IMG/VR virus record: IMGVR_UViG_3300045988_028050
Coordinates: 1 to 40,250 of that record
Origin: a virus
Length of the DNA: 40,250 nt
Reading direction: 5' to 3' (one strand)
The notes under the pieces are model-generated. The model did no database searches. It was given only the letters and a program-made list of their open reading frames with translations, and had not been told where the DNA came from. A program made the translations under genes and the position numbers. Positions 9,306 through 36,829 of the stretch are shown here, in pieces (within the stretch, counting starts at the first letter, position 1; each line of letters opens with the position of its first letter).

Positions 9306-9878
9306 TTACTTGTCGTATTTTTCGTGGAGCGCACCCAGCAAAGACGTGGGCTTCGTTTCACGAGTGCCGCCCTCAAGCGAACCCTGCGTGTCAACACGAG
9401 CGCCAGCCTTTACAAATGCGCTGGGATCCTCGGACTTTGCTTTTTCGAGGTACTTGTCGAACCCATCCAAAGCGCCGTCCTTCATTTCGAGCTTGCTGTC
9501 TCCGATACCCGCTCGGAAAGCCTTTTCCGCAGACTTGGAGGAAAACTTCACGCCGCTGTCGGCAATCGCCTTGTCAATGGCGGTCTGATAATCCCGCTGT
9601 GCAAGTTGCGCCTTGTACGCTTCGGTTTCCTTGTCATACTTGCCTTGCAGCTCGTCCAGCTTTTCCTGGATTTTGGCAGCGTCACCGCTGGTCTTTTTCA
9701 GCTCCGCGATGTCCTTATCCCGGTCTGCGACCTGCTGTTCCAGCGCGTCCTTGTCCGCCTTTGCGTCCTCTGCGGCTTTTTTGTGCTTCTCGATGTCCTT
9801 GCCGTTCATGGCAAAAACCTTGTCCGCCTGCTCTTCCGTCAGGCCGATGTTCAACAGCTCTTCTTTCTTCATGTTCAA
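9306..9878 (-). CDS. Scaffolding protein
   Basis: Highly charged coiled-coil protein (KADKDALEQQVADRDKDIAELKK...) immediately upstream of the capsid gene. Confidence 0.8.
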   Translation of the reverse strand: MNMKKEELLNIGLTEEQADKVFAMNGKDIEKHKKAAEDAKADKDALEQQVADRDKDIAELKKTSGDAAKIQEKLDELQGKYDKETEAYKAQLAQRDYQTAIDKAIADSGVKFSSKSAEKAFRAGIGDSKLEMKDGALDGFDKYLEKAKSEDPSAFVKAGARVDTQGSLEGGTRETKPTSLLGALHEKYDK

Positions 9879-9989
9879 CTCCTTACGGGATAGGCTTTTT
9901 AGGTCGTTGCCATGACCACCCCGCCTGCACTTTTAGGCTTGCAGATAGCCGATTTTTGTATAACCCCCGCATACGCGGTTTTTACTGAA

Positions 9990-10280: not shown

Positions 10281-11462
10281 TTAATTCTCATACAGCACCT
10301 TCATCCTTTCCCGTTGCTCCGGCAGCCCCGCCGCCTTGCTGAACGCTTTGTATTTGGCGTTCAGGCGGCGCAGTTTGATATTCACGGCCTGTTCTTCGTC
10401 TTTCAGCCCTGCGGCGCTGTACGCCGCCTTTTCGCGCTTGAGCTTGCGTATGGTGCGCTCCACCTTGCGCTGCTCCTGCGTGGCTTCGTATGCCGTATAG
10501 GTCTTGCCATCAAACGTACAGCCCAGCCCATCGTCAATGTGGGAAAGCTGTTCGTCGGTGTAAGTGCGTTCGCTTACACCTTCCACCCAAATATCGCGCC
10601 TGTGTCGGCAGTTGGCTCCTTCCAGCCCATCCACAGCGCCCAGGCCGCACACCTCGTAGATGTTTGGGTAGATGTCGCCACTGCGGGTGGAATACACTTT
10701 GCCCTGCCACTCCTTGTGCGATGACCACGGCGACCGCCCCGGTACATCACGCGCCCCGGCATGGGCGGACACCTCGTAGTAAGGCGTTTTTAGGTATTCC
10801 GACGCCTGCTCTGTGTACTTCGCGCACAGCTGCGATACGCCCGTCATAACTGCGCGGCGCGCTGCAACGTCTACATGGTCACGGTGTCCGCTTTCATAGT
10901 CCACCACGCGCAGTCCGCCGCTTGCAAGCTCTCTTACGGCGTCTTTGATAGCTTGCCCATAAGAGATAGCCCCGCTTTCTACTTTCAACGTAGCGGCATT
11001 TAAAGCCCACTGGTACGCCTTTGCCGGGGAAAGCATTGTGCGCCCTGCGTCTACCAAAAAGCCCATCGAAGCGGTGATGTTTCGGAACACGTCCTGCGTC
11101 TGCCGTTTTATGGCGTCAATGGTGGTTGCATCCACCAGCACGTCAGGCTTTGTGACATGGGCAAAGTCTATGACATCGGCGTAATACTTTTGGTTGCGCT
11201 CCACCACATCGTCTATTAGCTCGTTCAGCTTCTTCTCGCTGATGCCGGTGGCCTGTCGTATGGCTTTCTCAATCTCTTTTAGATCGATGCCATGCGCCCG
11301 CAGCGCCTTGATGTCCTGCACCGTGACCTCGTTCAACTTGTCCCGCAGCTTTAGCCGGGAGCATATCTCTGTAAGCAACGTGTCCTCAATCCCACGGTAC
11401 AGCTCTGCCAGTTCCTCGGGCATGGCATCCAGCAGTTCGGGGGTGAATGGATACTTGCTCAT
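10281..11462 (-). CDS. Head morphogenesis / minor capsid protein (Mu F / SPP1 gp7 family)
   Basis: C-terminal motifs YEVSAHAGARDVPGRSPWSSHKEWQGKVY and ANCRHRRD, positioned after the portal. The start is either ATG 11462 or TTG 11486. Confidence 0.85.
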   Translation of the reverse strand: MSKYPFTPELLDAMPEELAELYRGIEDTLLTEICSRLKLRDKLNEVTVQDIKALRAHGIDLKEIEKAIRQATGISEKKLNELIDDVVERNQKYYADVIDFAHVTKPDVLVDATTIDAIKRQTQDVFRNITASMGFLVDAGRTMLSPAKAYQWALNAATLKVESGAISYGQAIKDAVRELASGGLRVVDYESGHRDHVDVAARRAVMTGVSQLCAKYTEQASEYLKTPYYEVSAHAGARDVPGRSPWSSHKEWQGKVYSTRSGDIYPNIYEVCGLGAVDGLEGANCRHRRDIWVEGVSERTYTDEQLSHIDDGLGCTFDGKTYTAYEATQEQRKVERTIRKLKREKAAYSAAGLKDEEQAVNIKLRRLNAKYKAFSKAAGLPEQRERMKVLYEN

Positions 11463-11547
11463 CTTACATGGCCCAAAACTACCCAATTAGGGTTTTCATC
11501 TGTGCCAATGTTTACCCAAAAAGTACCGGGGTTTTCTCCATAGCCCA

Positions 11548-26892: not shown

Positions 26893-27096
26893 TTACCCCT
26901 GCGGCATCGTCCCCATCAGCTCCTCCACCTTCACGCCGTAGTGCTTCGCTACCAGCTTCGCGTGCTTCGGGTGCGGCTTAATGCCGTTCTTCCAGTTCGT
27001 AATGGACGTCTGATGTACGCCGATAGCCTTTGCCAGTCGGTAACTCGTCTCGCCGTGTTCCTCCTGCAACCGTGCGAGGTTTTCACCAAATCCCAA
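26893..27096 (-). CDS. Cro-like XRE HTH protein (first gene of the lytic transcript)
   Basis: TTG start 7 nt after GGAGG. ETSYRLAKAIGVHQTSITNWKNG is an HTH. Divergent from the CI-like gene. Confidence 0.75.
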   Translation of the reverse strand: MGFGENLARLQEEHGETSYRLAKAIGVHQTSITNWKNGIKPHPKHAKLVAKHYGVKVEELMGTMPQG

Positions 27097-27125
27097 AATA
27101 TCACCTCCAAAGTTAGATTATTTTC

Positions 27126-27154
27126 TTGACAAATTAGAGTATTTGTGATAGTTT
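27126..27154 (+). promoter_or_regulatory. Candidate lysogenic promoter
   Basis: TTGACA (27126-27131), a 17-nt spacer, then TGaTAGTTT extended -10 (27149-27154). Confidence 0.45.
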
Positions 27155-27234
27155 GGTTTTGCTACAAACTTTCCTATCACGCCAGCCCTATTTATCGGGG
27201 TGGTGCAGGTTTTTATTGCCTGTCCACGACGACA

Positions 27235-27263
27235 ATTATACCCTAACTTAGGGCATCTGTCAA
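27235..27263 (-). promoter_or_regulatory. Consensus lytic promoter
   Basis: Minus-strand read: TTGACA (27263-27258), 17 nt, TATAAT (27240-27235). The 13-bp palindrome CCCTAAcTTAGGG fills the spacer. Confidence 0.8.
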
Positions 27264-27298
27264 CCGAATTTAGGGTGTCAAAATGCACTAAATTAGGG
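27241..27298. promoter_or_regulatory. TTAGGG operator set
   Basis: CCCTAAcTTAGGG (27241-27253), AATTTAGGGTG (TTAGGG at 27270-27275) and AAATTAGGGTT (TTAGGG at 27293-27298). The 11-mer AAATTAGGGTT recurs at 28847-28857. Confidence 0.6.
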
Positions 27299-27308
27299 TT
27301 CTGTTTTT

Positions 27309-27665
27309 ATGAGTTTTACCAATAATTTTAACTACGCTTTAGAGCAGCGCGAATATTCTGCGTACAGATTTGCAAAAATTATAGGAGTAAACGGTCAATC
27401 TGTCGCAAACTGGAAAGCGGGCACTGTAATTCCGCACCCCAAAACGCGCCAAAAAATAGCCGAGCATTTCGGCATTACGCTTGCGGAGCTGGACGGTGAC
27501 GAACTGCCCGTCCTGCCGCCGGAAGGCGCAAAAAAAGCCCCCGCCGCAAAGGGCGAGGACGAAGCAAAGCTTGCACAATTTGTAGACGGCTTTATGCGCC
27601 TTACTCCTCAACAAAAGGATACTGTGCTTGCTCTAATAAAAGGCTTTCTACAAGATCAAGCATAA
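27309..27665 (+). CDS. CI-like XRE-family repressor
   Basis: N-terminal HTH (EYSAYRFAKIIGVNGQSVANWKAG), a flexible linker and a short C-terminal helix. First gene of the plus-strand lysogeny module. Confidence 0.8.
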   Translation: MSFTNNFNYALEQREYSAYRFAKIIGVNGQSVANWKAGTVIPHPKTRQKIAEHFGITLAELDGDELPVLPPEGAKKAPAAKGEDEAKLAQFVDGFMRLTPQQKDTVLALIKGFLQDQA

Positions 27666-27729
27666 CGTCTTTTTGCTCCGGGGTTAGCATCATAAAAAGT
27701 GCGGCTGCCATTTTTACCTGGTTGTCCAT
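27601..27729 (-). CDS. Antisense micro-ORF, 42 aa, resembling the repressor C-terminal tail
   Basis: ATG 27729 is preceded by AAAGGGGAAAGAA. Hand translation gives MDNQVKMAAALFMMLTPEQKDVMLDLVESLLLEQAQYPFVEE. Overlaps the last 65 nt of the repressor gene in antisense. Confidence 0.35.
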   Translation of the reverse strand: MDNQVKMAAALFMMLTPEQKDVMLDLVESLLLEQAQYPFVEE

Positions 27730-27858
27730 TTCTTTCCCCTTTCTTAATTTGACATATTATTTTCTCGGTGTACAACTAAGTTAGTACACTTATAGTTACG
27801 CACACGCTGTTTGTTGCCCACAAATGGGCAACACATTGAAAATTTTTGGGGGGCTAAA

Positions 27859-28755
27859 ATGAAAAGGCATCGTAAACTAAAGGCTGTAGTTATTTTTGTT
27901 CTCACTTTGTTTTTTACCATTATAGCGTTGTTGCTCATTCCTTTCGCAAGTGTGCCACAAGAAGACGGAACGGCAATGCTTACTTATGGCGCGACCGCAG
28001 CTCTTATTATTGTCCCGTCCGCGTTTACAGCATTGTTTGTGTGGATTGATAAGCGCGTTGAAAAAGCAAGCTTGCCGCAAGAGCCTTTTATTACTGCCAA
28101 TGGCAAAGCCCACGATCCGCTCATACCGGATGCAATAAAAGTAGTCATGGAAACCGGGCAAGCGTCCGTTTCTATGCTGCAGCGTAAGCTCAATCTTGGG
28201 TATTCTCAAGCCTTACGATTGATCGACGAGATGGAAACGCTGGGTATTGTCGGCCCGTTCGAAGGTTCTCGGCCTCGGCAAATATTGCTTACGCGGTCAC
28301 AATGCGAAGCGCTTATTCCAACGCTTAAGATTGCCCGCGCAAATTCATGTTTCGCGCCTTGTGAAGCAAGCAATCCGGACGCGGAGCTATACAAAATAGA
28401 TGGAATGGAAGGGCACGATTTTGAGTATTGGTGTGCAGACCTTCTAAAGAAAAACGGTTTTTCCAATGTTGAAGTCACACGTGGCAGCGGAGATCAGGGC
28501 GTTGACGTCCTTGCTAAATTTGGCGATGCCAAATATGCCATTCAATGTAAGTGCTATTCTTTCGATTTAGGAAACAAGCCGGTGCAGGAAGTAAATGCTG
28601 GAAAAGCATTTTACCATTGTCATATTGGGGTTGTAATGACAAATAGGTATTTTACAGCAGGCGCGAAAGAAATTGCGGAAGCAACCGGCGTTTTGCTGTG
28701 GGATAGGGACACGCTTAAGCGCTTGATTAAAAATGGGGGGCGTAATGATGATTAA
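27859..28755 (+). CDS. Membrane-anchored FtsK-gamma (winged helix) + Mrr_cat (PD-(D/E)xK) nuclease fusion
   Basis: Two N-terminal TM helices. DPLIPDAIKVVMETGQASVSMLQRKLNLGYSQALRLIDEMETLGIVGPFEGSRPRQILL is an FtsK/SpoIIIE gamma domain. GHDFEYWCADLL..GSGDQGVDVLA..AIQCKCY..VVMTNRYFT is an Mrr-type nuclease core. Confidence 0.8.
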   Translation: MKRHRKLKAVVIFVLTLFFTIIALLLIPFASVPQEDGTAMLTYGATAALIIVPSAFTALFVWIDKRVEKASLPQEPFITANGKAHDPLIPDAIKVVMETGQASVSMLQRKLNLGYSQALRLIDEMETLGIVGPFEGSRPRQILLTRSQCEALIPTLKIARANSCFAPCEASNPDAELYKIDGMEGHDFEYWCADLLKKNGFSNVEVTRGSGDQGVDVLAKFGDAKYAIQCKCYSFDLGNKPVQEVNAGKAFYHCHIGVVMTNRYFTAGAKEIAEATGVLLWDRDTLKRLIKNGGRNDD

Positions 28756-28766
28756 AGCAAGCAAAT

Positions 28767-28806
28767 AGCCCCGCTGCTCCCGCAACGGACAGCGGGGCTA
28801 TTTTGC
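28767..28806 (+). terminator. Intrinsic terminator after the nuclease gene
   Basis: AGCCCCGCTG, a 13-nt loop, CAGCGGGGCT, then ATTTTG. Confidence 0.8.
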
Positions 28807-28856
28807 CGGTGGCCTCCCGGCTTTCCGGCTGCACGTTCACACTAACAAATTAGGGT

Positions 28857-28885
28857 TTGGCAGGGCAATACCAAATTCGGATAAT
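28857..28885 (+). promoter_or_regulatory. Candidate promoter of the HTH-TM / integrase operon, overlapped by a TTAGGG operator
   Basis: TTGGCA (28857-28862), a 17-nt spacer, GATAAT (28880-28885). AAATTAGGGTT (28847-28857) abuts the -35. Confidence 0.55.
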
Positions 28886-28946
28886 TACCGTTTGCGGCAA
28901 AACAGAATTGGGATTCTTCTGCCCGAAAAAGGAGTAAAAGGGGAAA

Positions 28947-29558
28947 ATGGTAAAAACATTGCAGGATTTGTGCAGGGATGCAAAAGACCGACAGAATTTA
29001 ACTATACAAGATTTGTCCGACATGACGGACATTTCAGCATCAACCATAAGCAATTTTTTCTCCGCATCATCAAAGGAGCCGAGCGTGTACAAAATGGGTT
29101 TAATTTGTGCCGCGCTTGGCGTTTCGATGGACGAATATTTCGGGATTGAAAAAGAAGTGACAACGGAAGATCAATTGACGAAAGCCAATGAACAGCTGAA
29201 GCATCAAAAGCAGCTGCATGATGCCGATGTGCAGATAGCCCATCTTGAGGGCAGCATGGAGCAGATGGCAAAAACCATTAACTACCATCGCAAGAAATCG
29301 CGGGACACAAAATTTGCTATTTATGGCCTTACGCTTTTGTGCGCCATATTTATGGCTGTTATCGTGGGATATATCTTTTTTGACTACCACATTCCCCATA
29401 AGGGGCTTATTCAGGGCGGGCAAGCTGGTGTATTTGCATGGATTGTCTTTTTGCTTCTTGCCGCCGGTATTGGCATTTTTGCCGCTATTTTGATGATGTA
29501 TTTGCGCTATGCAAAGAAGTATACATTGTCGCCAGATAAGGGAGGAGATGAACAATGA
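28947..29558 (+). CDS. Membrane-anchored XRE-family HTH protein (HTH, coiled coil, two C-terminal TM helices)
   Basis: LTIQDLSDMTDISASTISNFFS is an HTH. TMs are FAIYGLTLLCAIFMAVIVGYIFF and VFAWIVFLLLAAGIGIFAAILMMY. Its stop overlaps the integrase ATG (ATGA). Confidence 0.75.
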   Translation: MVKTLQDLCRDAKDRQNLTIQDLSDMTDISASTISNFFSASSKEPSVYKMGLICAALGVSMDEYFGIEKEVTTEDQLTKANEQLKHQKQLHDADVQIAHLEGSMEQMAKTINYHRKKSRDTKFAIYGLTLLCAIFMAVIVGYIFFDYHIPHKGLIQGGQAGVFAWIVFLLLAAGIGIFAAILMMYLRYAKKYTLSPDKGGDEQ

Positions 29559-30877
29559 GTGTAGTATTGCGGGCAGCATTATACCCGCGTGTGTCCACAG
29601 AAGAACAGAAAAAGTTTGGCCTGTCTATTCACGATCAGCAGAACGACCTCGAAGAATACGCCAAAGCCCACAATATGAAGGTGGTAGGCGTTTTCCAGGA
29701 TGCCGGGTTTTCCGCCAGAAAGAAGATTGAAAAGCGTCCCGCCATGCTTCAACTGCTGGAAGCCGTAAAGCATGATGAAATAGACATTATTCTTGTCACA
29801 AAGCTGGACCGGTGGTTTCGCAACATCGGCGAGTATTACAAAGTGCAGGAAATCCTTGAAGCCCACAACGTGTCATGGAAAACGATTTACGAGGACTACG
29901 ACACGTCTACAGCTGCAGGCCGGTTGAAGATTAACATTATGCTTTCCGTAGCACAGGACGAAGCTGACCGCGCCAGTGAACGCATAAAAAAAGTGCTTGA
30001 TGCAAAAAAAGATCGAAATGAGGTTTGCACCGGTCATCTTCCTAAAGGCTATAAAAGAGAGGGTAAGTTTGCGGTTATAGACAAAGAAGCAGAGCCGATA
30101 ATGCGCAGATTTTTTTCAACCTTCTTTGAAACCGGCGCAATAACAAAGGCGATGGATGCTGTGCCTGAATTAAATCTCAACTATAAAACCGCAAGCGCGA
30201 TACTGAATAACACCGCTTATATGGGCAAATGGAACGGCCTTACGCTGCCGCCGTACCTAACACAACAGGAATTTCAAAGGGTACAAGAATTAAGGCGGCG
30301 AGTTACAAGAAAATCACCGTATAACCGCATCTATTTATTCTCGGGGCTTACCGTGTGCGGCGAGTGTGGGAGAAGAATGACAGGACACCCTACCACATTA
30401 AAAGATGGCACGTGTGTTTACAAGTATCTTTGCCAGGGCGCGAAGCAAAGAAGGGGGTGTGACAATGGCTTAGTTGTTCGCGAACAAGACATAGAAAATT
30501 ATTTCATGTTTTCCATTGACGAACAGATACAGATCAAACTAAAAGCTAAAGCCCAGCACGCGCCCAAAATTAACACCGACGCGCAAATTAAAGCTATACA
30601 AAAAAAGCTTGCCAAACTGTCTGAGTTGTATATAGATGACATGATCTCAAAGCCAGACTACTCTAAAAAGTACGCAGAGCTGACGAAGCAAGTAGAGGCG
30701 CTTAAACAAACACAAGTACAAAGCCGCGCTCCGGAAGAAGTCGCGGACTTGTTCGCCCCCGGCTGGCAAGACATTTATAAAGATCTTACCCGCGAGAACA
30801 AACGGGCTTTTTGGAAACTCAAAATAAAAGAAATCCGGCTATACAAAGACAGCCGGATTGAATTCGATTTTCTCTAA
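29555..30877 (+). CDS. int: Large serine recombinase (integrase)
   Basis: Resolvase catalytic N-terminus (AALYPRVSTEEQ), recombinase domain, zinc ribbon CGECGRRM...C, and a C-terminal coiled coil. Confidence 0.92.
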   Translation: MSVVLRAALYPRVSTEEQKKFGLSIHDQQNDLEEYAKAHNMKVVGVFQDAGFSARKKIEKRPAMLQLLEAVKHDEIDIILVTKLDRWFRNIGEYYKVQEILEAHNVSWKTIYEDYDTSTAAGRLKINIMLSVAQDEADRASERIKKVLDAKKDRNEVCTGHLPKGYKREGKFAVIDKEAEPIMRRFFSTFFETGAITKAMDAVPELNLNYKTASAILNNTAYMGKWNGLTLPPYLTQQEFQRVQELRRRVTRKSPYNRIYLFSGLTVCGECGRRMTGHPTTLKDGTCVYKYLCQGAKQRRGCDNGLVVREQDIENYFMFSIDEQIQIKLKAKAQHAPKINTDAQIKAIQKKLAKLSELYIDDMISKPDYSKKYAELTKQVEALKQTQVQSRAPEEVADLFAPGWQDIYKDLTRENKRAFWKLKIKEIRLYKDSRIEFDFL

Positions 30878-30879
30878 AA

Positions 30880-30919
30880 ACTTAGTTAGACGTAACCTGA
30901 CGGTTGCATCCAACTAAGT
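30880..30919. other. Candidate attP core
   Basis: Two 18-nt arms, ACTTAGTTAGACGTAACC and GGTTGCATCCAACTAAGT (15/18 complementary), flank the central TGAC. It begins 3 bp after the integrase stop. Confidence 0.5.
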
Positions 30920-30958
30920 ACACGGCAATATCCCCCGCCCAAACAGGCGGGGGATCGC

Positions 30959-31273
30959 TTATCCTCGCATCTTTCGCATCACGTTATCATACATTCGCGC
31001 ATTGGTTACTTTCAGCGCATCCATCAACTCGTCCACTATGGCCCACGCCTGTTCCGGCGCGCGGGATGATACCGCTTGCATGAAGTCACTGTCACCGTCT
31101 ACCACATCAGGAGCCGGCGCGCTGGAATACATAGCCACCGGTGCAGGGTTTCTCTGCCCTTCGTGCTGGTTTTGTATAATGTACAGCGCGGCCAACTTCT
31201 CGTAGTTCGGCCAGCTTGACTGTTCCGTTTCCAGTCTGGCTATCCAGGCTTTAAGTTCCTTTTCGTCGATCAA
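30959..31273 (-). CDS. Hypothetical protein, 104 aa (accessory cassette, last gene)
   Basis: ORF track. The C-terminal AWAIVDELMDALKVTNARMYDNVMRKM motif recurs in Clostridia, by my recollection only. Confidence 0.55.
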   Translation of the reverse strand: MIDEKELKAWIARLETEQSSWPNYEKLAALYIIQNQHEGQRNPAPVAMYSSAPAPDVVDGDSDFMQAVSSRAPEQAWAIVDELMDALKVTNARMYDNVMRKMRG

Positions 31274-31289
31274 GGGGAACTACCCCCTC

Positions 31290-31706
31290 TCAGCCCTCCA
31301 CGGCATCCATGCACCGCTGAATGGCGTTGCGGATTGTATCATCGTCCGCATTGTCCAGCATCTCCTGCAGCTGGCGCTTCATGTCGTCCTTCGCACTGTC
31401 GCGGCTATAATGTCCGCGCACGTAGTGAGTGCCGCGCCGTGCGTAGGAGCTGCCGCCGCCGTAGCTGTCGCGGGAATACCTGCGCTGGGAATAGTCGCCG
31501 TCGCGGGAGTAACGCCGCTGGGAATAATCGCCGTCGCGGCTGTATCCTTCGTCGTCCATCAGATCGATCTTGTCGATGTTCTTGATGGTGCTTACCAGCT
31601 TATGCGCGATGTCCAGATCCCCGGCGCCCAGCTCTCCTTTGTGGGCGATTTCGTCAAGCTCCTTGCACAGCATATCGCGCAAATCGTACATTGCTTTCAT
31701 GCTCAT
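31290..31706 (-). CDS. Hypothetical protein with an R/S/Y/D-rich tandem repeat, 138 aa
   Basis: ORF track. Helical ends flank GYSRDGDYSQRRYSRDGDYSQRRYSRDSYGGGSSYARRG. Confidence 0.6.
   Translation of the reverse strand: MSMKAMYDLRDMLCKELDEIAHKGELGAGDLDIAHKLVSTIKNIDKIDLMDDEGYSRDGDYSQRRYSRDGDYSQRRYSRDSYGGGSSYARRGTHYVRGHYSRDSAKDDMKRQLQEMLDNADDDTIRNAIQRCMDAVEG
31467..31539. repeat. 33-nt tandem repeat, about 2.2 copies, inside the CDS
   Basis: 31467-31499 and 31500-31532 align along their whole length with a few substitutions. A third unit starts at 31533. They encode the YSRDGDYSQRR repeats. Confidence 0.8.
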
Positions 31707-31718
31707 AGTTTGCTCCTT

Positions 31719-32141
31719 TCAGCTTACGCGGTCAACGGTCAAGTTGGAGTTGGCGAAATTGATTGCCTGTGCGCTCGTGTTTTCCATAGCTACAGTCAGG
31801 CAACAGCCCTTCGGCACTTCCACAATGGCGCTGACATAAATGTTGAAATAGTTTTCCACTGCGGCGGGTGTAACGGTCGCCACGGCACTACTAAGCGGTT
31901 CCCCGTTGATAGCCAGCGCGGCGGTAATAGCTTCCACCGTGCCGCCGGTAGGGATAGCGATGTTGCCGCCAAAAGCCACGCGAAAACGTGCCTTGCACTG
32001 GTTTGTCAGCCCGCGCAAAGTTACGATGCCTGCTCCGGCTCGATGCACGATGCACGGCTTGCTGTTGACCGCGGTTTCCGTCAGAGGCACATTCTGCCCT
32101 GCGGCCACAGTCACGATATTGGCGTTGGTAAATTCGGCCAA
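31719..32141 (-). CDS. Beta-rich protein, 140 aa, with a pattern reminiscent of C1q/TNF-like BclA C-terminal domains (tentative)
   Basis: Start refined to TTG 32141, 7 nt after AAAGGAG. Alternating hydrophobic pattern: VTVAAGQNVPL..IVTLRG..FRVAFGGNI..ALAINGEPL..VAMENTS..SNLTVDRV. Confidence 0.6.
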   Translation of the reverse strand: MAEFTNANIVTVAAGQNVPLTETAVNSKPCIVHRAGAGIVTLRGLTNQCKARFRVAFGGNIAIPTGGTVEAITAALAINGEPLSSAVATVTPAAVENYFNIYVSAIVEVPKGCCLTVAMENTSAQAINFANSNLTVDRVS

Positions 32142-32256
32142 AATAATCACTCCTTTCAAAATACAGCGGCGGAGCTATTGCCCCGCCGCGTTGGTGTCAG
32201 TATCAGCACGGGGCTGAACAGTTCGGAAATCCCGAACAGCTGGTGCTATGCACTTT

Positions 32257-32985
32257 TCAGCAGCCGCAGCCGGTTCCGCATCCGCCATAGCCGCTGCCCG
32301 CCCACGGATTACAAGTGATGTAAGCTGGGGTGGGGCAAGGGCGCAGCTGGGAAATCAGGTAGTTGTTCTGCGCAGCCTGAGAAGCGGCAAGGCGCAACTC
32401 CTGATTGGCACTTTCCAGATCGCGCATCTTGCTCTGCGTCAGGAAGTCGAGGATCGCGCGGCTGTTGCTGTTGGCGTTGTCGATGATGTCGCGCGTGGCG
32501 TTCTGCACGGTGTTGCGCGTGTCACACGCCTGCGCCGCCATGTCGTAGCGCACGCCCTCGATGCTGCGCTGGGTGGTGCAGCAACATTCAGCTGCCTGCA
32601 TCTGCATGGCGTTGAGCTGCTGCATTAGCGCCGCCTGCTGGTTGCTACGGGACAGCTCGGCCTGTGCAAAGCCGTTTGCCATCGCCATGTTGGTGCCGTT
32701 GACAAGCTGCGCCTGCTGGTAAAACCCGTCGCAAAGTCCCTGATTTACACTGTCGATCTTGCGCTCGACATTGGCAAAGTCAGAGGTCAGAACATAACCG
32801 TCCATCACGCCGTTGCCGCCGTTACCGAAACCAAAGCCGTTACCCCAGCCGCCGAACGCGGCGAAAATAAGGAACAGAACGATCCACCACGCACCATCAC
32901 CGCCCCAGCCGAAACCGTTACCGTTTCCGGTGTTGGCAGGAGCCACAGGCATAGTCATCATGGGGGTGCCATCGGAAAGAGACAT
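32257..32985 (-). CDS. Gly-rich membrane protein with a Gln/Asn-rich helical region and a Cys-rich C-terminus, 242 aa
   Basis: Strong RBS AAGGAGTG. GNGNGFGWGGDGAWWIVLFLIFAAFGGWGNGFGFGNGGNG is a YjcZ-like segment. Internal CCC, and a C-terminal GYGGCGTGCGC. Confidence 0.7.
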   Translation of the reverse strand: MSLSDGTPMMTMPVAPANTGNGNGFGWGGDGAWWIVLFLIFAAFGGWGNGFGFGNGGNGVMDGYVLTSDFANVERKIDSVNQGLCDGFYQQAQLVNGTNMAMANGFAQAELSRSNQQAALMQQLNAMQMQAAECCCTTQRSIEGVRYDMAAQACDTRNTVQNATRDIIDNANSNSRAILDFLTQSKMRDLESANQELRLAASQAAQNNYLISQLRPCPTPAYITCNPWAGSGYGGCGTGCGC

Positions 32986-33038
32986 AGTATCACTCCTTTT
33001 GAAAAAATATTTATATCAAACCGTGGCCACGATTTTGA

Positions 33039-33260
33039 TTACTTGAAAAGCCCCTGAAATTGGTTCGCCATTGACTGTATCTTGTTCAACTGATCTTGTG
33101 AGATTCTGCCGCTTTGCAGCATTTTCTCTACTTCCGCTTTTGGGTCGCCTTTAAAGCTCGCTTTGAATTGCTTAAACTGCTGCAAAAGCTGAGGAAAGCC
33201 GCTCATCGACCTCGGCATCTGCCCGCCGCACAATGCATTGAAAAACGGATTGTTACTCAT
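33039..33260 (-). CDS. Hypothetical protein, 73 aa
   Basis: ATG overlaps the end of the upstream gene. MSNNPFFNAL...QQFKQFKASFKGDPKAEVEKML. Confidence 0.55.
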   Translation of the reverse strand: MSNNPFFNALCGGQMPRSMSGFPQLLQQFKQFKASFKGDPKAEVEKMLQSGRISQDQLNKIQSMANQFQGLFK

Positions 33261-33693
33261 CGTCCTCGTCCTCCTCCACCTTGCGTTTCTTCTTGCCCTT
33301 CATTTCGCCCACAAGAGCCGCCAGCGCGTCGAACTCTTTACGGGTCACATATTCCGGGGCGGGAGCTTTCTGCGCGTCAGGAGCGCTTGCAAGGCGTTCT
33401 ACAAGGTCATACGTCTTAAGGGTCGGCTTGCCGCTTGCATCGGTCTGTTTTAGGTACACCACGGGAGCCGTGCTGTCCCACAGCGCAATAGCGGAGTTAG
33501 GCGCGATCAGCCAGTTTTCCGCCTCCGGCCTACCAGCTACCCACTGTACGCCGCCCTGCGCCACCGGGTTCTGCATGGGCGGGATTTGCGGTATCTGCGG
33601 CGGCATGGTCTGCATCTGCTGCTGTCGAAGCTGAGCAAGGTTGTCCTGCATCGGCTGCGGGTAATAAGGGTTAAAATACGGATTAAATGCCAT
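33253..33693 (-). CDS. Pro/Gln-rich protein with a KKKRKVEEDEDDE tail, 146 aa
   Basis: RBS GAGG. N-terminal low-complexity region, then a globular segment VQWVAGRPEAENWLIAPNSAIALWDSTAPVVYLKQTDASGKP. Confidence 0.6.
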   Translation of the reverse strand: MAFNPYFNPYYPQPMQDNLAQLRQQQMQTMPPQIPQIPPMQNPVAQGGVQWVAGRPEAENWLIAPNSAIALWDSTAPVVYLKQTDASGKPTLKTYDLVERLASAPDAQKAPAPEYVTRKEFDALAALVGEMKGKKKRKVEEDEDDE

Positions 33694-33695
33694 AG

Positions 33696-34079
33696 TTACG
33701 CCTCACTTTCTTTTTGCCAGTAATACAAAACAATTTCGTTTTCGCTGTTCCAGCTGTCGTAGATCACGCCGTCCTGAACACATACAACGTGCCCGGATAG
33801 CGCAAGGATAAACGTCCCTTCCGGGTGTTCGTCGGCAAACCTACCGACCGTGTAGCAATCCGGGCAAGTGTCCGGCACAATGTACCGCCGATAGCCTATA
33901 CGACGCAGATACGCGCCCCACACTGCGTTGGCCGACGGCATATCCCCTTCCAGATACCCCTGCACCGCCATAGCAAGGTACGTTTCGCCCCACTCTTTCC
34001 CGGTGGCTTTGGAGATAGCCCGCACAGTGCAATCCCCCACGTTTTTCCCACGCGGGTTCTTGTTGTAATAGCTATACAT
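33696..34079 (-). CDS. Papain-fold / C39-like cysteine peptidase candidate, 127 aa
   Basis: Candidate Cys-His-Asp triad: GDCTVRAIS, SGHVVCV, YDSW. The family is common in gut phage and plasmid sequences, by my recollection only. Confidence 0.55.
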   Translation of the reverse strand: MYSYYNKNPRGKNVGDCTVRAISKATGKEWGETYLAMAVQGYLEGDMPSANAVWGAYLRRIGYRRYIVPDTCPDCYTVGRFADEHPEGTFILALSGHVVCVQDGVIYDSWNSENEIVLYYWQKESEA

Positions 34080-34203
34080 GAGCTGCTACCAACTCGATAA
34101 CTTGCACATAGGATTTCAGCCCCGGAAGATCGTCCTGATACGCCCAAATGATGTCCTCCGCCATTTGCTGTGTAAATCCCAACGACACCAGCTTTTCGAC
34201 CAT
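34072..34203 (-). CDS. Small protein, 43 aa (first gene of the cassette)
   Basis: Start refined to ATG 34203, 6 nt after GGAGGTG. Its stop overlaps the next start. Confidence 0.45.
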   Translation of the reverse strand: MVEKLVSLGFTQQMAEDIIWAYQDDLPGLKSYVQVIELVAAHV

Positions 34204-34236
34204 GCAAGCACCTCCGTTTCTTGCAATAAGCGTAAC

Positions 34237-34262
34237 AAAAAACTGCCCCCGCAAAGGGGCAG
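34237..34262 (-). terminator. Intrinsic terminator 34 nt upstream of the cassette start
   Basis: On the minus strand: CTGCCCC-tttgcg-GGGGCAG followed by TTTTTTG. Confidence 0.8.
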
Positions 34263-34410
34263 TTAAAGGTCAGAAAAAGGCCGTTAATTTGCGAAATATT
34301 TACTTGTACAATACCGCAGAAACGGTGTATAATAAAACCAGCCACTTCGAAATGCTCCCGGAGGGCATCTTCCCCATTCATTATGCCCGGTTCCCCCCCC
34401 CTACCGGGCG

Positions 34411-34445
34411 CAAACAAAGAAGCCGCACCTAAATGGTGCGGCTTC
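34411..34445 (-). terminator. Intrinsic terminator after the sigma-region-4-like gene (hairpin usable on both strands)
   Basis: GAAGCCGCACC-5 nt-GGTGCGGCTTC followed by TTTGTTTG on the minus strand and TTTCTT on the plus strand. Confidence 0.75.
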
Positions 34446-34761: not shown

Positions 34762-35445
34762 TTACTTCACGATCTCCCACGTGCCGCACGTTCCTGCTCT
34801 GTTCATGATCTTCACCAGCAGCTCGCCGGGGGTCATAGGCTTCTCCGGCTCCGCAGGCTTCGTCTCCTCCACATACGGAATACCGAACCACTCACACAGC
34901 CCCTTGGCCGCGCTCTCCGCGATCTCCTTCATGTGGGTGTGGAACCATGTGGCGTCCTCCATGTTGTCGTGAAACACGTGCTCCTCGTAGAAGCTCACCG
35001 CCTTGGGCTTGTAAAGCTCATACCACTTGGATCTGGCCACCAGCTTCACCGTGCGCGGGTAAATCTGCTTCCGGTACTTCACCATGATCTCGCCCAGCTT
35101 CTTGCCGTTCTTTGAGTAGGTGTAGTACATAGGGAAGCAACCCCGGGAGTTACCCTTGCCGTCTGCGCTGCCGTTGGTGTGGCTGACGTAATGCACGTCT
35201 GCGCCCCAAGCGTCGCTCTCCCGCACGTTCTGCTTCATGATGGCGTCGCCGTTGTCGCCGTTCATGGGGGTGCGCCGGTAGCCGCGCTTGGTGGCAATGC
35301 CGCAGCGGTTCAGGATCGGCTCAAGGATGTCGATGTACTCGTTGTTCTCCAGTGCCTCATAGCACTGCTGCCCGTCCGGGCGAGGATATACACAGGGGTT
35401 TGCCATGTGCATAGCCGGGGACAGGTAGACCTTCGGGGCGGCCAT
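34762..35445 (-). CDS. Endolysin, N-acetylmuramoyl-L-alanine amidase (Amidase_3-like)
   Basis: VYLSPAMHMANPC...ADVHYVSHTNGSADGKGNSRG pattern. Immediately follows the holin. Confidence 0.75.
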   Translation of the reverse strand: MAAPKVYLSPAMHMANPCVYPRPDGQQCYEALENNEYIDILEPILNRCGIATKRGYRRTPMNGDNGDAIMKQNVRESDAWGADVHYVSHTNGSADGKGNSRGCFPMYYTYSKNGKKLGEIMVKYRKQIYPRTVKLVARSKWYELYKPKAVSFYEEHVFHDNMEDATWFHTHMKEIAESAAKGLCEWFGIPYVEETKPAEPEKPMTPGELLVKIMNRAGTCGTWEIVK

Positions 35446-35736
35446 TTACATAGCCTCCTCGTTGTTGGTAGACTTCATCTGCTTAAACACCTGATTAACG
35501 CCCGTTGCGGTCAGGCCGGACATAATGCCCACGGCAACCGCCGTAAAGTAGTCCTCGGCGGGGAAATCCGGCATGTGGAACGCCAGTGCCAGCGCACCGA
35601 TGATGCCGCCGCACACGCCGCAAATAATGGGGATCCATTTGCTGTCCAGCGCCGTAGCCTTCACGATCATGCCGACCAGATAGCAGATGACGATGATAGC
35701 GGCAACAGTGGCCACTCCGATAGTGTTGATGTCCAT
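35446..35736 (-). CDS. Holin
   Basis: 96 aa with three hydrophobic helices and a charged C-terminus (KQMKSTNNEEAM). Abuts the endolysin start. Confidence 0.8.
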   Translation of the reverse strand: MDINTIGVATVAAIIVICYLVGMIVKATALDSKWIPIICGVCGGIIGALALAFHMPDFPAEDYFTAVAVGIMSGLTATGVNQVFKQMKSTNNEEAM

Positions 35737-36355: not shown

Positions 36356-36805
36356 TTACTCCATAGACACCTTTAGGTTGTTTTCGTAGATCAGCAGGGT
36401 ATTGCCCTCCGGTACCGTGACGGGTGTGGTCAGTGCACCGGCCATGACGGGCGCACCGCCAGTCTGCGCGGAAAACAGCCCGAAGTGCGTCACTGTGCCG
36501 AAGCCTCCGCCGCCCTCCACCGCCGTGGCGATGTAGATCTTGTTGCTGCCGTTCTTGATCTCCCCGCTGGCCGCCGCGTCCATCGTGTAGGTGGCAGTGT
36601 TGCCCTTGATGCCCAGCCGCACCCGCTTGTAGCCCGTGGCGGCGCCGGGCTCGGTGAAGTTGGTGATGGCACCTGCGGCCGAGAGGGTCGGCGTGGTTGT
36701 GCTGACGCCCAGATAGCACTCCCCCGCCGTGGGGATCGCCGGGTTGCTGTCGCCCCTGGCAAAAAATGCGTTCAGCAGCGCGTTGCTAATTGCAGTTGCG
36801 ATCAT
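36356..36805 (-). CDS. Tail-fibre-region structural protein, 149 aa
   Basis: Start refined to ATG 36805, preceded by TGGAGGT. Pattern AISNALLNAFF...YLGVST...GYKRV...VTHFGLF seen in phage fibre-associated proteins. Confidence 0.55.
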   Translation of the reverse strand: MIATAISNALLNAFFARGDSNPAIPTAGECYLGVSTTTPTLSAAGAITNFTEPGAATGYKRVRLGIKGNTATYTMDAAASGEIKNGSNKIYIATAVEGGGGFGTVTHFGLFSAQTGGAPVMAGALTTPVTVPEGNTLLIYENNLKVSME

Positions 36806-36829
36806 AGTTTTTACCTCCATTTTATAAAA

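Follow-up and report, generated by a model that had tools for sequence, protein, structure and literature searches.

A horizontally mobile module of nine genes and a structured RNA in the late region of tailed phages of gut Clostridia

What does a phage gain from a set of small genes of no recognisable function placed beyond its lysis genes? The question is raised by a stretch of viral DNA of 40,250 nucleotides (IMG/VR record IMGVR_UViG_3300045988_028050, positions 1 to 40,250; this whole stretch is the window referred to below), in which a preliminary description had picked out a cassette of eight genes after the holin and endolysin genes, and had taken it for lysogenic-conversion cargo lying close to attP. 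Reading of the open reading frames (ORFs) confirmed eight tightly packed minus-strand genes at 30959-34203, with their coordinates and overlaps, and these are called P1 to P8 here. Limiting the cassette to eight genes proved too narrow, as a gene for a sigma-70 region-4 protein (P0), three intrinsic terminators and a structured RNA belong to the unit too. The resulting module of nine genes and a regulatory RNA is self-contained and horizontally mobile among tailed phages of gut Clostridia. Specific to phages and not tied to lysogeny, it changes place between the boundaries of transcription units in the late region. The interpretation as classic lysogenic-conversion cargo is poorly supported because the module occupies two genomic slots, one of them within head operons, because it is carried by the lytic Butyrivibrio phage Ceridwen, and because its G+C content agrees with the phage core. 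It ranks with the most abundant of the unexplained gene sets in gut phages, and its role is open to testing now, since an isolated phage and cultured lysogens carry it; an answer would allow thousands of phage genomes to be annotated in one go, and would tell whether phages of anaerobes make an extra structure, an adhesin or an effector late in infection.

Conserved gene order and two genomic slots

The order P2-P3-P4-P5-P6-P7(-P8) recurs in 87 phage or prophage loci of Oscillospiraceae, Lachnospiraceae and their relatives, so that the earlier suggestion of several of these proteins co-occurring in Clostridial genomes was borne out by the gene-neighbourhood check. Throughout, the arrangement is (P0)(P1) P2 P3 P4 P5 P6 P7 (P8), with brackets marking members that are not always detected. 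An alignment of P6 was compared with one genome per GTDB species, yielding 143 relatives from which 80 loci were kept, and the members were sought with iterated hidden Markov models on 88 sources. P5 was detected in 83 of these sources, P7-like genes in 75, P3 in 73, P4 in 57 (with a divergent form in 14 more) and P2 in 54; P0 was found in 29, ahead of P1/P2 or between P2 and P3, and P8 and P1, the least conserved members of the module, in 28 and 12 respectively, P1 being the least conserved of all. Loci with proteins no more than 25-60% identical to those of the window retain the order, and such rigidity at this level of divergence is expected for parts of one complex or pathway.

Seven phage records carry P2 to P8 with the order unchanged, including Ceridwen and three lemur-gut ‘Dulem’ viruses. 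By record title, the loci from the GTDB scan are nearly all from Oscillospiraceae, Lachnospiraceae, Acutalibacteraceae and other Clostridia (a few are probably mis-binned), and the samples that yielded the module are of human, lemur, rodent and ruminant origin. Its cultured or isolated carriers are Ceridwen, Vescimonas fastidiosa MM35, Lachnospira intestinalis CLA-AA-H89B and Lachnospiraceae JLR.KK009. Exact copies of the P1-P8 proteins are on record on many contigs (accessions including DAL42436-DAL42440) and P6 and P2 each have at least about 8,000 homologues among protein clusters at 90% identity, so P1 to P8 are genes and not chance ORFs. P6 forms 577 clusters at 50% identity, and of the 150 entries listed, the near-complete ones have about 135-157 aa. 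Relatives of P2 also occur singly in Bacillus, Geobacillus, Lak and Pseudomonas phages, the neighbourhoods in Geobacillus GBK2 and Bacillus Tsamsa being uninformative, and no homologue of P3 was found in any isolated phage.

All the loci inspected have a phage or prophage setting, with no sign of travel outside phages. The single ‘plasmid’ match is a prophage on a replicon of V. fastidiosa MM35, a cultured human-gut isolate. In this locus (NZ_AP023416.1, 251813-254547) the cassette stands at the prophage end, past the holin and amidase genes and beside host lactate genes, and the replicon on which the prophage resides is 861 kb long and filed as a plasmid.

Pfam scans of the flanking genes placed the module in two slots. 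The first has lysin and holin genes upstream (Amidase_2/3, GH25, CHAP and several holin families) and an integrase gene (12 tyrosine, 3 serine) or host genes downstream, and the second has Phage_min_cap2 upstream (10 loci) and Phage_scaffold and the major capsid gene downstream. In both slots the module is co-directional with the late genes, and in one head-operon locus (L053) the P2 start overlaps the minor-capsid stop. Between the window's own min_cap2 gene (10284-11486) and scaffold gene (9309-9878) there is only a GP20-b RNA motif. Comparing the window with the phages that have the module in the head slot, min_cap2 and portal are 23-32% identical, against 59-60% for P6, 50-58% for P2 and 39-41% for P5. 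As a separate observation, the GP20-b motif (9891-9950, minus strand; 56.7 bits, E=4e-10) lies directly upstream of the scaffold gene, in the same slot that holds the cassette in other phages, and it alone in the whole window reaches the Rfam gathering score.

Three features of a prophage-borne moron were compared with these loci. Restriction to temperate phages and the prophage end is contradicted by Ceridwen and by at least 10 loci in which the module lies between minor-capsid and scaffold genes. A base composition unlike that of the phage is not seen either, as the module has a G+C content of 0.536-0.585 over 31-34 kb, like the structural genes, and the integrase module 0.44-0.47. Of a promoter and terminator of its own, the terminators are clear and the promoters are -10-like motifs only. 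Ceridwen has no integrase and its host is Butyrivibrio fibrisolvens; according to the Ceridwen paper the phage was seen in the lytic cycle only, and spores are never mentioned for the host. From these settings we infer that the module serves the lytic, late programme and is not classic lysogenic-conversion cargo.

A role in spores had also been suggested. Record titles with the module include Butyrivibrio, Lachnospira, Agathobacter and Subdoligranulum, which to our knowledge are non-sporulating genera; on this host range a spore-specific role is unlikely, and it was dropped as a candidate.

The packing of the genes is tight on the whole. P1 and P2 overlap by 8 nt, as do P3 and P4, and the gaps are short between P2 and P3 (2 nt), P6 and P7 (12 nt) and P7 and P8 (16 nt), with larger ones between P4 and P5 (53 nt) and between P5 and P6 (115 nt), the last of which holds the structured RNA.

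Regulatory sequences and a structured RNA

P0 (34429-34674, minus strand) encodes 81 aa with region 4 of sigma-70 only (Pfam Sigma70_r4_2, E=6.4e-9) and is a putative regulator of the module. It is directly followed by an intrinsic terminator, T0 (34411-34445, minus strand), whose loop contains the P0 stop codon and whose sequence, by reading, is GAAGCCGCACC-attta-GGTGCGGCTTC, then TTTGTTTG. A further intrinsic terminator, T1 (34231-34264, minus strand), lies 28 nt ahead of the ribosome-binding site and start of P1 and was given by a terminator scan as a 10-bp stem with 6 G-C pairs, then TTTTTGTTACG. Across the loci a hairpin and T-run were seen by eye after P0 in essentially all 23 gaps listed, and in many loci this T-run is followed by a TGnGAAAATATAAT-like motif, possibly an extended -10. 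The stretch between T0 and T1 (34265-34410, minus strand, about 145 nt), upstream of P1, is conserved in two close relatives (L008 and L013); it gave no Rfam match above noise and may represent a leader or small RNA. Between P8 and the integrase gene, which converge, a G+C-rich hairpin (30931-30954, minus strand) of sequence TCCCCCGCC-tgttt-GGGCGGGGGA follows the P8 stop; it has a weak T-run and was not called by the terminator scan.

The structured RNA lies 3' of P5 (32157-32246, minus strand) and comprises, from 32246 to 32157, a hairpin H1 of variable sequence (32237-32221), a covarying 5-bp hairpin H2 (32217-32203), a short conserved TAYTGAC-like spacer and an intrinsic terminator (32189-32166) with its U-run, after which comes the P6 ribosome-binding site. 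H1 stems form in at least 31 of 37 sequences in spite of their differing sequences. In the alignment, which was fitted to the model itself and thereby favours structure, 96.2% of cells at the paired positions are standard pairs, 14 of 15 pairs are changed on both sides and none of 500 shuffles match this. A covariance model (R1) located a single copy per locus, in every case directly past P5, in 58 of 87 sources, and about 10 loci in which the P5-P6 gap is only 13-30 nt are without the element. No Rfam family matched it at E<=1, and inspection by eye gave no antiterminator pairing consistent across classes. The element is a candidate new cis-regulatory element.

Insertion of a methyltransferase gene, a PAPS-reductase-like gene or a small ORF before P6 leaves the RNA in its place after P5. 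The cassette is an insertion hot spot for selfish and accessory genes more generally (L039:6825-7940, L043:7138-7962, L001:8455-9318, L002:6410-6961): the P5-P6 gap has received DNA methyltransferase-like and PAPS-reductase-like genes, the P6-P7 gap of Ceridwen an HNH-like gene, and the P4-P5 gap of Dulem virus 33 an annotated endonuclease gene.

Folds and composition of the module proteins

Searches by family gave little. P1 to P8 have no Pfam or NCBIfam family match and PADLOC returned zero matches for any of the nine proteins; P2 to P7 match PHROGs strongly (E 1e-16 to 1e-57), every family being labelled ‘unknown function’. The view that nothing here looks like a virion, replication or known defence component was thus upheld for all nine proteins in Pfam, NCBIfam, PHROGs and PADLOC. 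A defence system was rejected as a candidate on this lack of a match together with the late-operon setting. Comparison with the PDB by sequence, using P6 and P2 singly and profiles of P6, P2, P3, P5, P8 and P7, gave no significant match, and a Pfam scan of 123 single homologues of P3, P4, P5, P7 and P8 gave nothing for those families. Homologues in cultured Lachnospira and Vescimonas RefSeq genomes and in the GenBank record of a Lachnospiraceae isolate are all annotated ‘hypothetical protein’, and literature searches on BclA-, C1q- and TNF-like proteins in phages, on endospore appendages, on Ceridwen and on phage sporulation genes found no paper on this gene set.

P6 (31719-32141, minus strand; phrog_20016) is the best conserved member of the module. 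It has 140 aa counted from a TTG start; the mechanical ORF has 146, and nearly all homologues are called as the 140-aa form. The AlphaFold2 model is all-beta with a mean predicted local distance difference test score (pLDDT) of 94.3, and it confidently predicts a stand-alone ten-strand jelly roll of the TNF/C1q type, closest to F-BclA, ExsFA, BxpB and BclA, in keeping with the C1q/TNF/BclA-like pattern remarked on before. The best Foldseek match in the PDB is the C-terminal domain of F-BclA (9h38, E=6.5e-7, template modelling (TM) score 0.70-0.77), with further matches to ExsFA (7r1m), BxpB (8d02) and BclA (1wck), next to EDA-A1, 4-1BBL and C1q domains (probability 1.00, E 6.5e-7 to 3e-4), and also to cyanophage fibre domains and the knob of the phi812 central spike. 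When predicted viral structures were compared, stand-alone proteins of 130-145 aa from uncultured gut phages ranked first and the C-termini of collagen-like and tail-fibre proteins next. By sequence, P6 has no Pfam or NCBIfam match at E<=0.1, and a profile of 50 homologues found no relative in the PDB (best E 0.16, unrelated). A GCC motif (113-114) and about 15 other positions are invariant, and the 140 aa are the domain only, with neither collagen-like GXX repeats nor an N-terminal exosporium leader. Longer P6 homologues, considered as fibre-like extensions, turned out instead to be P2-P6 and P3-P6 chimeras that are likely to be deletions or assembly artefacts: in P0375, P0388, P0484 and P0519 the N-terminal part of P2 or P3 is fused, at short motifs common to both, with the C-terminal part of P6.

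Of the known systems, the set of Bacillus exosporium and appendage-tip proteins (BclA, F-BclA, ExsFA/BxpB and the Cys-rich ExsY/CotY lattice) comes nearest. P6 shares its TNF/C1q fold (Foldseek E 6.5e-7 to 1e-5, TM about 0.7) and, like ExsFA/BxpB, is a stand-alone domain of about 140 aa; the module also has a Cys-rich protein (P5), Tyr/Ser/Arg/Gly-rich proteins and a protease. Exosporium proteins assemble in the mother-cell cytoplasm, and the module proteins, in which no signal peptides were found on reading the sequences, would likewise assemble in the cytoplasm, with lysis to follow. Cys motifs of the CC type recur in endospore-appendage proteins (PMC12357932). In contrast to that set, P6 lacks sequence-level membership, collagen-like repeats and the exosporium leader, P5 is no ExsY/CotY homologue by any search, and the module is encoded by phages, including a lytic Butyrivibrio phage. 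The likeness extends to the P6 fold and the overall cast; the other tests of membership (sequence family, repeats and leader, sporulation context) fail. The fold of P6 is also that of viral TNF-like knobs, namely those of the phi812 central spike, the cyanophage A-1(L) short fibre and giant-virus collagen-like fibres, in which it serves as the distal trimeric binding domain; in the module P5 could be the shaft. Unlike these knobs, P6 is a polypeptide of 140 aa in its own right rather than a fibre C-terminus, its gene lies outside the tail module and is accompanied by those for a peptidase and low-complexity proteins, and P6 is far more conserved than receptor-binding tips usually are.

P2 (33696-34079, minus strand; 127 aa; phrog_3754) has the papain-like order of Cys, His and Asp and is a presumed peptidase. 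Its residues D16, C17, H97, D108, W110 and S112 are invariant, the triad C17/H97/D108 being so both in 47 and in 69 sequences, and in the AlphaFold2 model (pLDDT 92) Cys17 is at the N-terminus of a helix (17-26) and His97 and Asp108 are on adjacent strands (97-102 and 105-108). Foldseek gave weak matches only (Josephin-2 with E=0.34, then TssM, Tae4 and PLpro), and no Pfam or NCBIfam match or significant likeness to any defined peptidase family was obtained. The preliminary description had proposed a papain/C39-like protein; the invariant Cys-His-Asp and the papain-like topology of the model agree with the first part, whereas C39 membership is supported by no model. Among the papain-like peptidases (C39, Josephin and other deubiquitinases, and the NlpC/P60 type including Tae4) P2 shares the order of the triad and its secondary-structure context, and its weak best structural matches belong to the superfamily, but it has only 127 aa, no transporter or fused domain and no match to a single family. 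A C39 bacteriocin-processing system was ruled out, as no transporter gene, and hence no ABC transporter partner for P2, is present in any locus.

Cassettes without P2 have a HExxH protein of about 105 aa directly past the P7-like gene, which was exposed by the Pfam scan of the 123 homologues and has ImmA/IrrE-, SprT- and DUF6782-type matches. P2 and this metallopeptidase are mutually exclusive within the cassette, and the displacement of one peptidase by a non-orthologous other argues that proteolysis is part of the function. This variant cassette, found in L004, L006, L033, L037, L046-L048, L062, L068, L070, L075 and L087, also has a divergent P4 and a longer P7-like protein (about 210-250 aa), with the metallopeptidase at its end; in Dulem virus 39 and in L033 it stands directly after the integrase gene.

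P5 (32257-32985, minus strand; phrog_16490) has 242 aa, with a Cys-containing helical body, a Gly/Trp/Phe-rich hydrophobic segment at about residues 32-48, present in 67 of 72 homologues and almost without flanking Lys or Arg, and a Cys/Gly-rich C-terminus. There are 7-16 Cys residues (mean 11), four of them in the last 25 aa, and a CCC motif is found in 70 of the 72 homologues. Of P3 to P8, the scoring for a conserved hydrophobic segment covered P5, and revealed one there. The Gly-rich hydrophobic segment and Cys-rich end noted earlier were therefore seen again, but a YjcZ-like identity for P5 was not: P5 and 24 homologues scanned singly gave no match to a YjcZ model, and the Gly-rich hydrophobic pattern alone is alike. 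A P5 profile compared with the PDB gave non-significant matches to an HA2 fusion peptide and to keratin (E>=0.13).

P3 (33253-33693, minus strand; 146 aa; phrog_21718) has a small conserved domain between a Gln/Pro/Tyr-rich N-terminus and a charged C-terminal tail. Over 69 homologues, Q/P/Y/N/M make up 62% of the first 45 aa and charged residues 38% of the last 30, in agreement with its description as Pro/Gln-rich with a charged tail, and its profile found no match in the PDB. P7 (31290-31706, minus strand; 138 aa; phrog_28802) has helical ends around a low-complexity centre rich in Arg, Ser, Tyr, Gly and Asp, the best 40-aa window of which is on average 82% R/S/Y/G/D/N over 72 homologues. The tandem repeats reported for it are real, Tandem Repeats Finder giving an 11-aa repeat with a 33-nt period and 2.2 copies at 31467-31539. 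Its profile matched ATP synthase b in the PDB, non-significantly and in a way that looks like coiled-coil noise. P4 (33039-33260, minus strand; 73 aa; phrog_22984) is small and Gln-rich, looks helical, and has one public annotation as ‘DUF2680’. P8 (30959-31273, minus strand; 104 aa) also looks helical; alignment of 24 homologues revealed a conserved C-terminal motif, YGDSxF...DELMDTLxVVNxRxY, and its profile had no match in the PDB. P1 (34072-34203, minus strand; 43 aa) is small, looks helical and is UBA-like, with Pfam UBA at E=0.1 only and one public annotation as ‘UBA-like domain protein’. An alternative 60-aa TTG reading of P1 extends to 34254 and enters the terminator hairpin; public collections have the 43-aa form.

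Candidate functions and neighbouring genes

The explanation that we favour, tentatively, is that the module makes a structural or adhesive assembly late in infection which is freed by lysis and possibly bound to virions; we regard this as possible rather than probable. Assembly in the cytoplasm late in infection, followed by release on lysis, is suggested by the co-direction of the module with late genes, its lytic carrier, the lack of export signals on inspection and the TNF/C1q fold of P6, which in all cases known to us acts outside the cell. In the scheme we infer for the timing, assembly, partners, location and ligand of the product, P0 would help to switch on a promoter downstream of its own terminated gene, transcription of P1/P2 to P5 would run up to the structured RNA and terminator past P5, and read-through of this element would set the dose of P6 to P8. 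The proteins would then assemble in the cytoplasm of a cell nearing lysis, with P5 as a Cys-rich helical rod whose Gly/Trp/Phe-rich hydrophobic end makes it a base or stalk, P6 trimers as distal knobs, P3 and P7 as a matrix or linkers and the small proteins P4 and P8 as adaptors, and with P2, or the HExxH enzyme of about 105 aa in the variants, maturing one or more components. The product would be a knobbed, possibly Cys-linked structural or adhesive assembly, set free when holin and endolysin lyse the cell, and it would most plausibly ride on virions, or coat debris or membrane, and bind a conserved ligand outside the cell. The conserved Cys residues, that is the CCC and C-terminal Cys of P5 and the GCC of P6, count for this explanation, as do the rigid gene order, the core-like G+C content, the peptidase, the regulatory sequences and the better conservation of cassette proteins than of minor capsid and portal between the window and the head-slot phages.

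Several points weigh against a late structural or adhesive assembly. No member has a virion-family match in Pfam or PHROGs, and P2 resembles known cysteine peptidases only weakly in structure (Foldseek E>=0.34). A decoration shared by capsids so diverged, with minor-capsid and portal proteins no more than 23-32% identical to those of the window, would need a generic mode of docking. The loci were selected through P6, so that the co-occurrence is conditional on P6, and many of the sources are truncated contigs. Were the hydrophobic segment of P5 an ordinary membrane anchor, as it may be, the product would more likely be bound to the cell than to virions, and the prophage-end position and moron-like terminator insulation also fit expression from the prophage.

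That last possibility, which we consider rather unlikely, is of a moron expressed in the lysogen from its own promoter, with membrane-anchored P5 and a P6 cap altering the host envelope for superinfection exclusion, masking or adhesion. The morons found between lysis genes and att in Gram-positive prophages resemble the module in its position in the window, terminator insulation, a regulator of its own and mobility between phages. The window and many other loci do have the module at the prophage end, between lysin and integrase or host genes; the -10-like motifs past the P0 terminator in many loci could serve such expression, and P5 has one hydrophobic segment. Against this, the module differs from those morons in its rigid multi-gene synteny and core-like composition, exclusion genes being usually single and variable and not a rigid set of seven to nine, and it is present in Ceridwen, with no integrase, and inside the head operon in at least 10 loci. 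With no signal peptide seen on inspection, P6 could not reach the cell surface, and the hydrophobic segment of P5 is without the positive flanks of a normal anchor.

Release by lysis would also serve a bacteriocin-like or host-directed effector complex, just as Shiga toxin and colicins are freed by lysis; P6 would be its receptor-binding knob, P5 would act on the membrane and P2 would activate it by proteolysis. We think this unlikely. The genes adjoin holin and lysin, the peptidase is never missing, the TNF-like fold of P6 is one for binding and P6 is highly conserved across phages of differing host families, and the Gly/aromatic-rich hydrophobic N-terminal segment and Cys-rich end of P5 would suit membrane action, as the want of signal peptides on inspection would suit release by lysis. 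No toxin, bacteriocin or immunity family was matched, however, no transporter or recognisable immunity gene accompanies the set, the head-operon loci are not beside lysis genes, and for a toxin seven to nine conserved components is a large number.

An intracellular late function, be it lysis timing at the membrane, an assembly condensate or scaffold, or an unrecognised counter-defence complex, we hold to be just as unlikely as the effector. It would agree with the absence, on inspection, of export signals from all products, with the position next to lysis genes in many loci, and with the prion-like or RGG-like low-complexity regions of P3 and P7, which are of the condensate-forming kind; P2 bears a weak likeness to cysteine proteases of the deubiquitinase type, and one public annotation makes P1 UBA-like. 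The deubiquitinase matches of P2 are not significant, however, we know of no cytoplasmic role for the TNF/C1q fold, PADLOC and the other libraries give nothing, and P6, as the most conserved protein here, is unlike counter-defence genes, which tend to be small, early and quick to evolve.

Less likely again is that the module is a phage kit for building an exosporium-like outer structure in the doomed cell, with a Cys-linked P5 base, P6 knobs and a low-complexity matrix matured by the protease. Were it so, the structure would wrap, decorate or occlude progeny virions and might serve adhesion to a conserved gut ligand or protection in transit between animal hosts, and it would be a layer of virion biology new to tailed phages, one that comes with a sigma-like regulator of its own and a new RNA of the attenuator type. 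The module has a real chance of being something categorically new rather than an accessory structural or adhesive module of phages. That the genes have no common function and are unrelated small phage genes kept together through shared descent alone is highly improbable: all are ‘hypothetical’ in public records and P1, P8 and P0 often go undetected, but the order survives a change of slot between phages whose head genes are only 23-32% identical, the genes are translationally coupled, the peptidase is displaced by a non-orthologous one at another position of the module, and a dedicated RNA element is kept beside inserted foreign genes.

Upstream of the module in the window are a Phage_holin_5_2 holin gene (35446-35736) and a gene for an Amidase_3-like lysin (34762-35445; a weak match, below the Pfam cut-off). 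Between the tail-fibre genes and the holin gene, an ORF at 36356-36820 (minus strand, 154 aa) matches Pfam Gp80, the podophage GP4 fibre I protein, with E=9e-17. Downstream, a convergent gene encodes a serine recombinase (29555-30877), beyond which are genes for an HTH_3 protein with a membrane domain and then for a Mrr_cat/FtsK-gamma protein. These make up a lysogeny module (27000-31000) with a G+C content of 0.44-0.47, against 0.52-0.64 in the remaining phage; the membrane domain of the HTH_3 protein is DUF2207-like and the end of its gene overlaps the integrase start, and the Mrr_cat and FtsK-gamma protein is encoded at 27811-28755. In Dulem virus 35 (L007) a homologue of the window's holin (10719-10976, 54% identity) lies between head-tail connector and minor-capsid genes, an unusual place for it.

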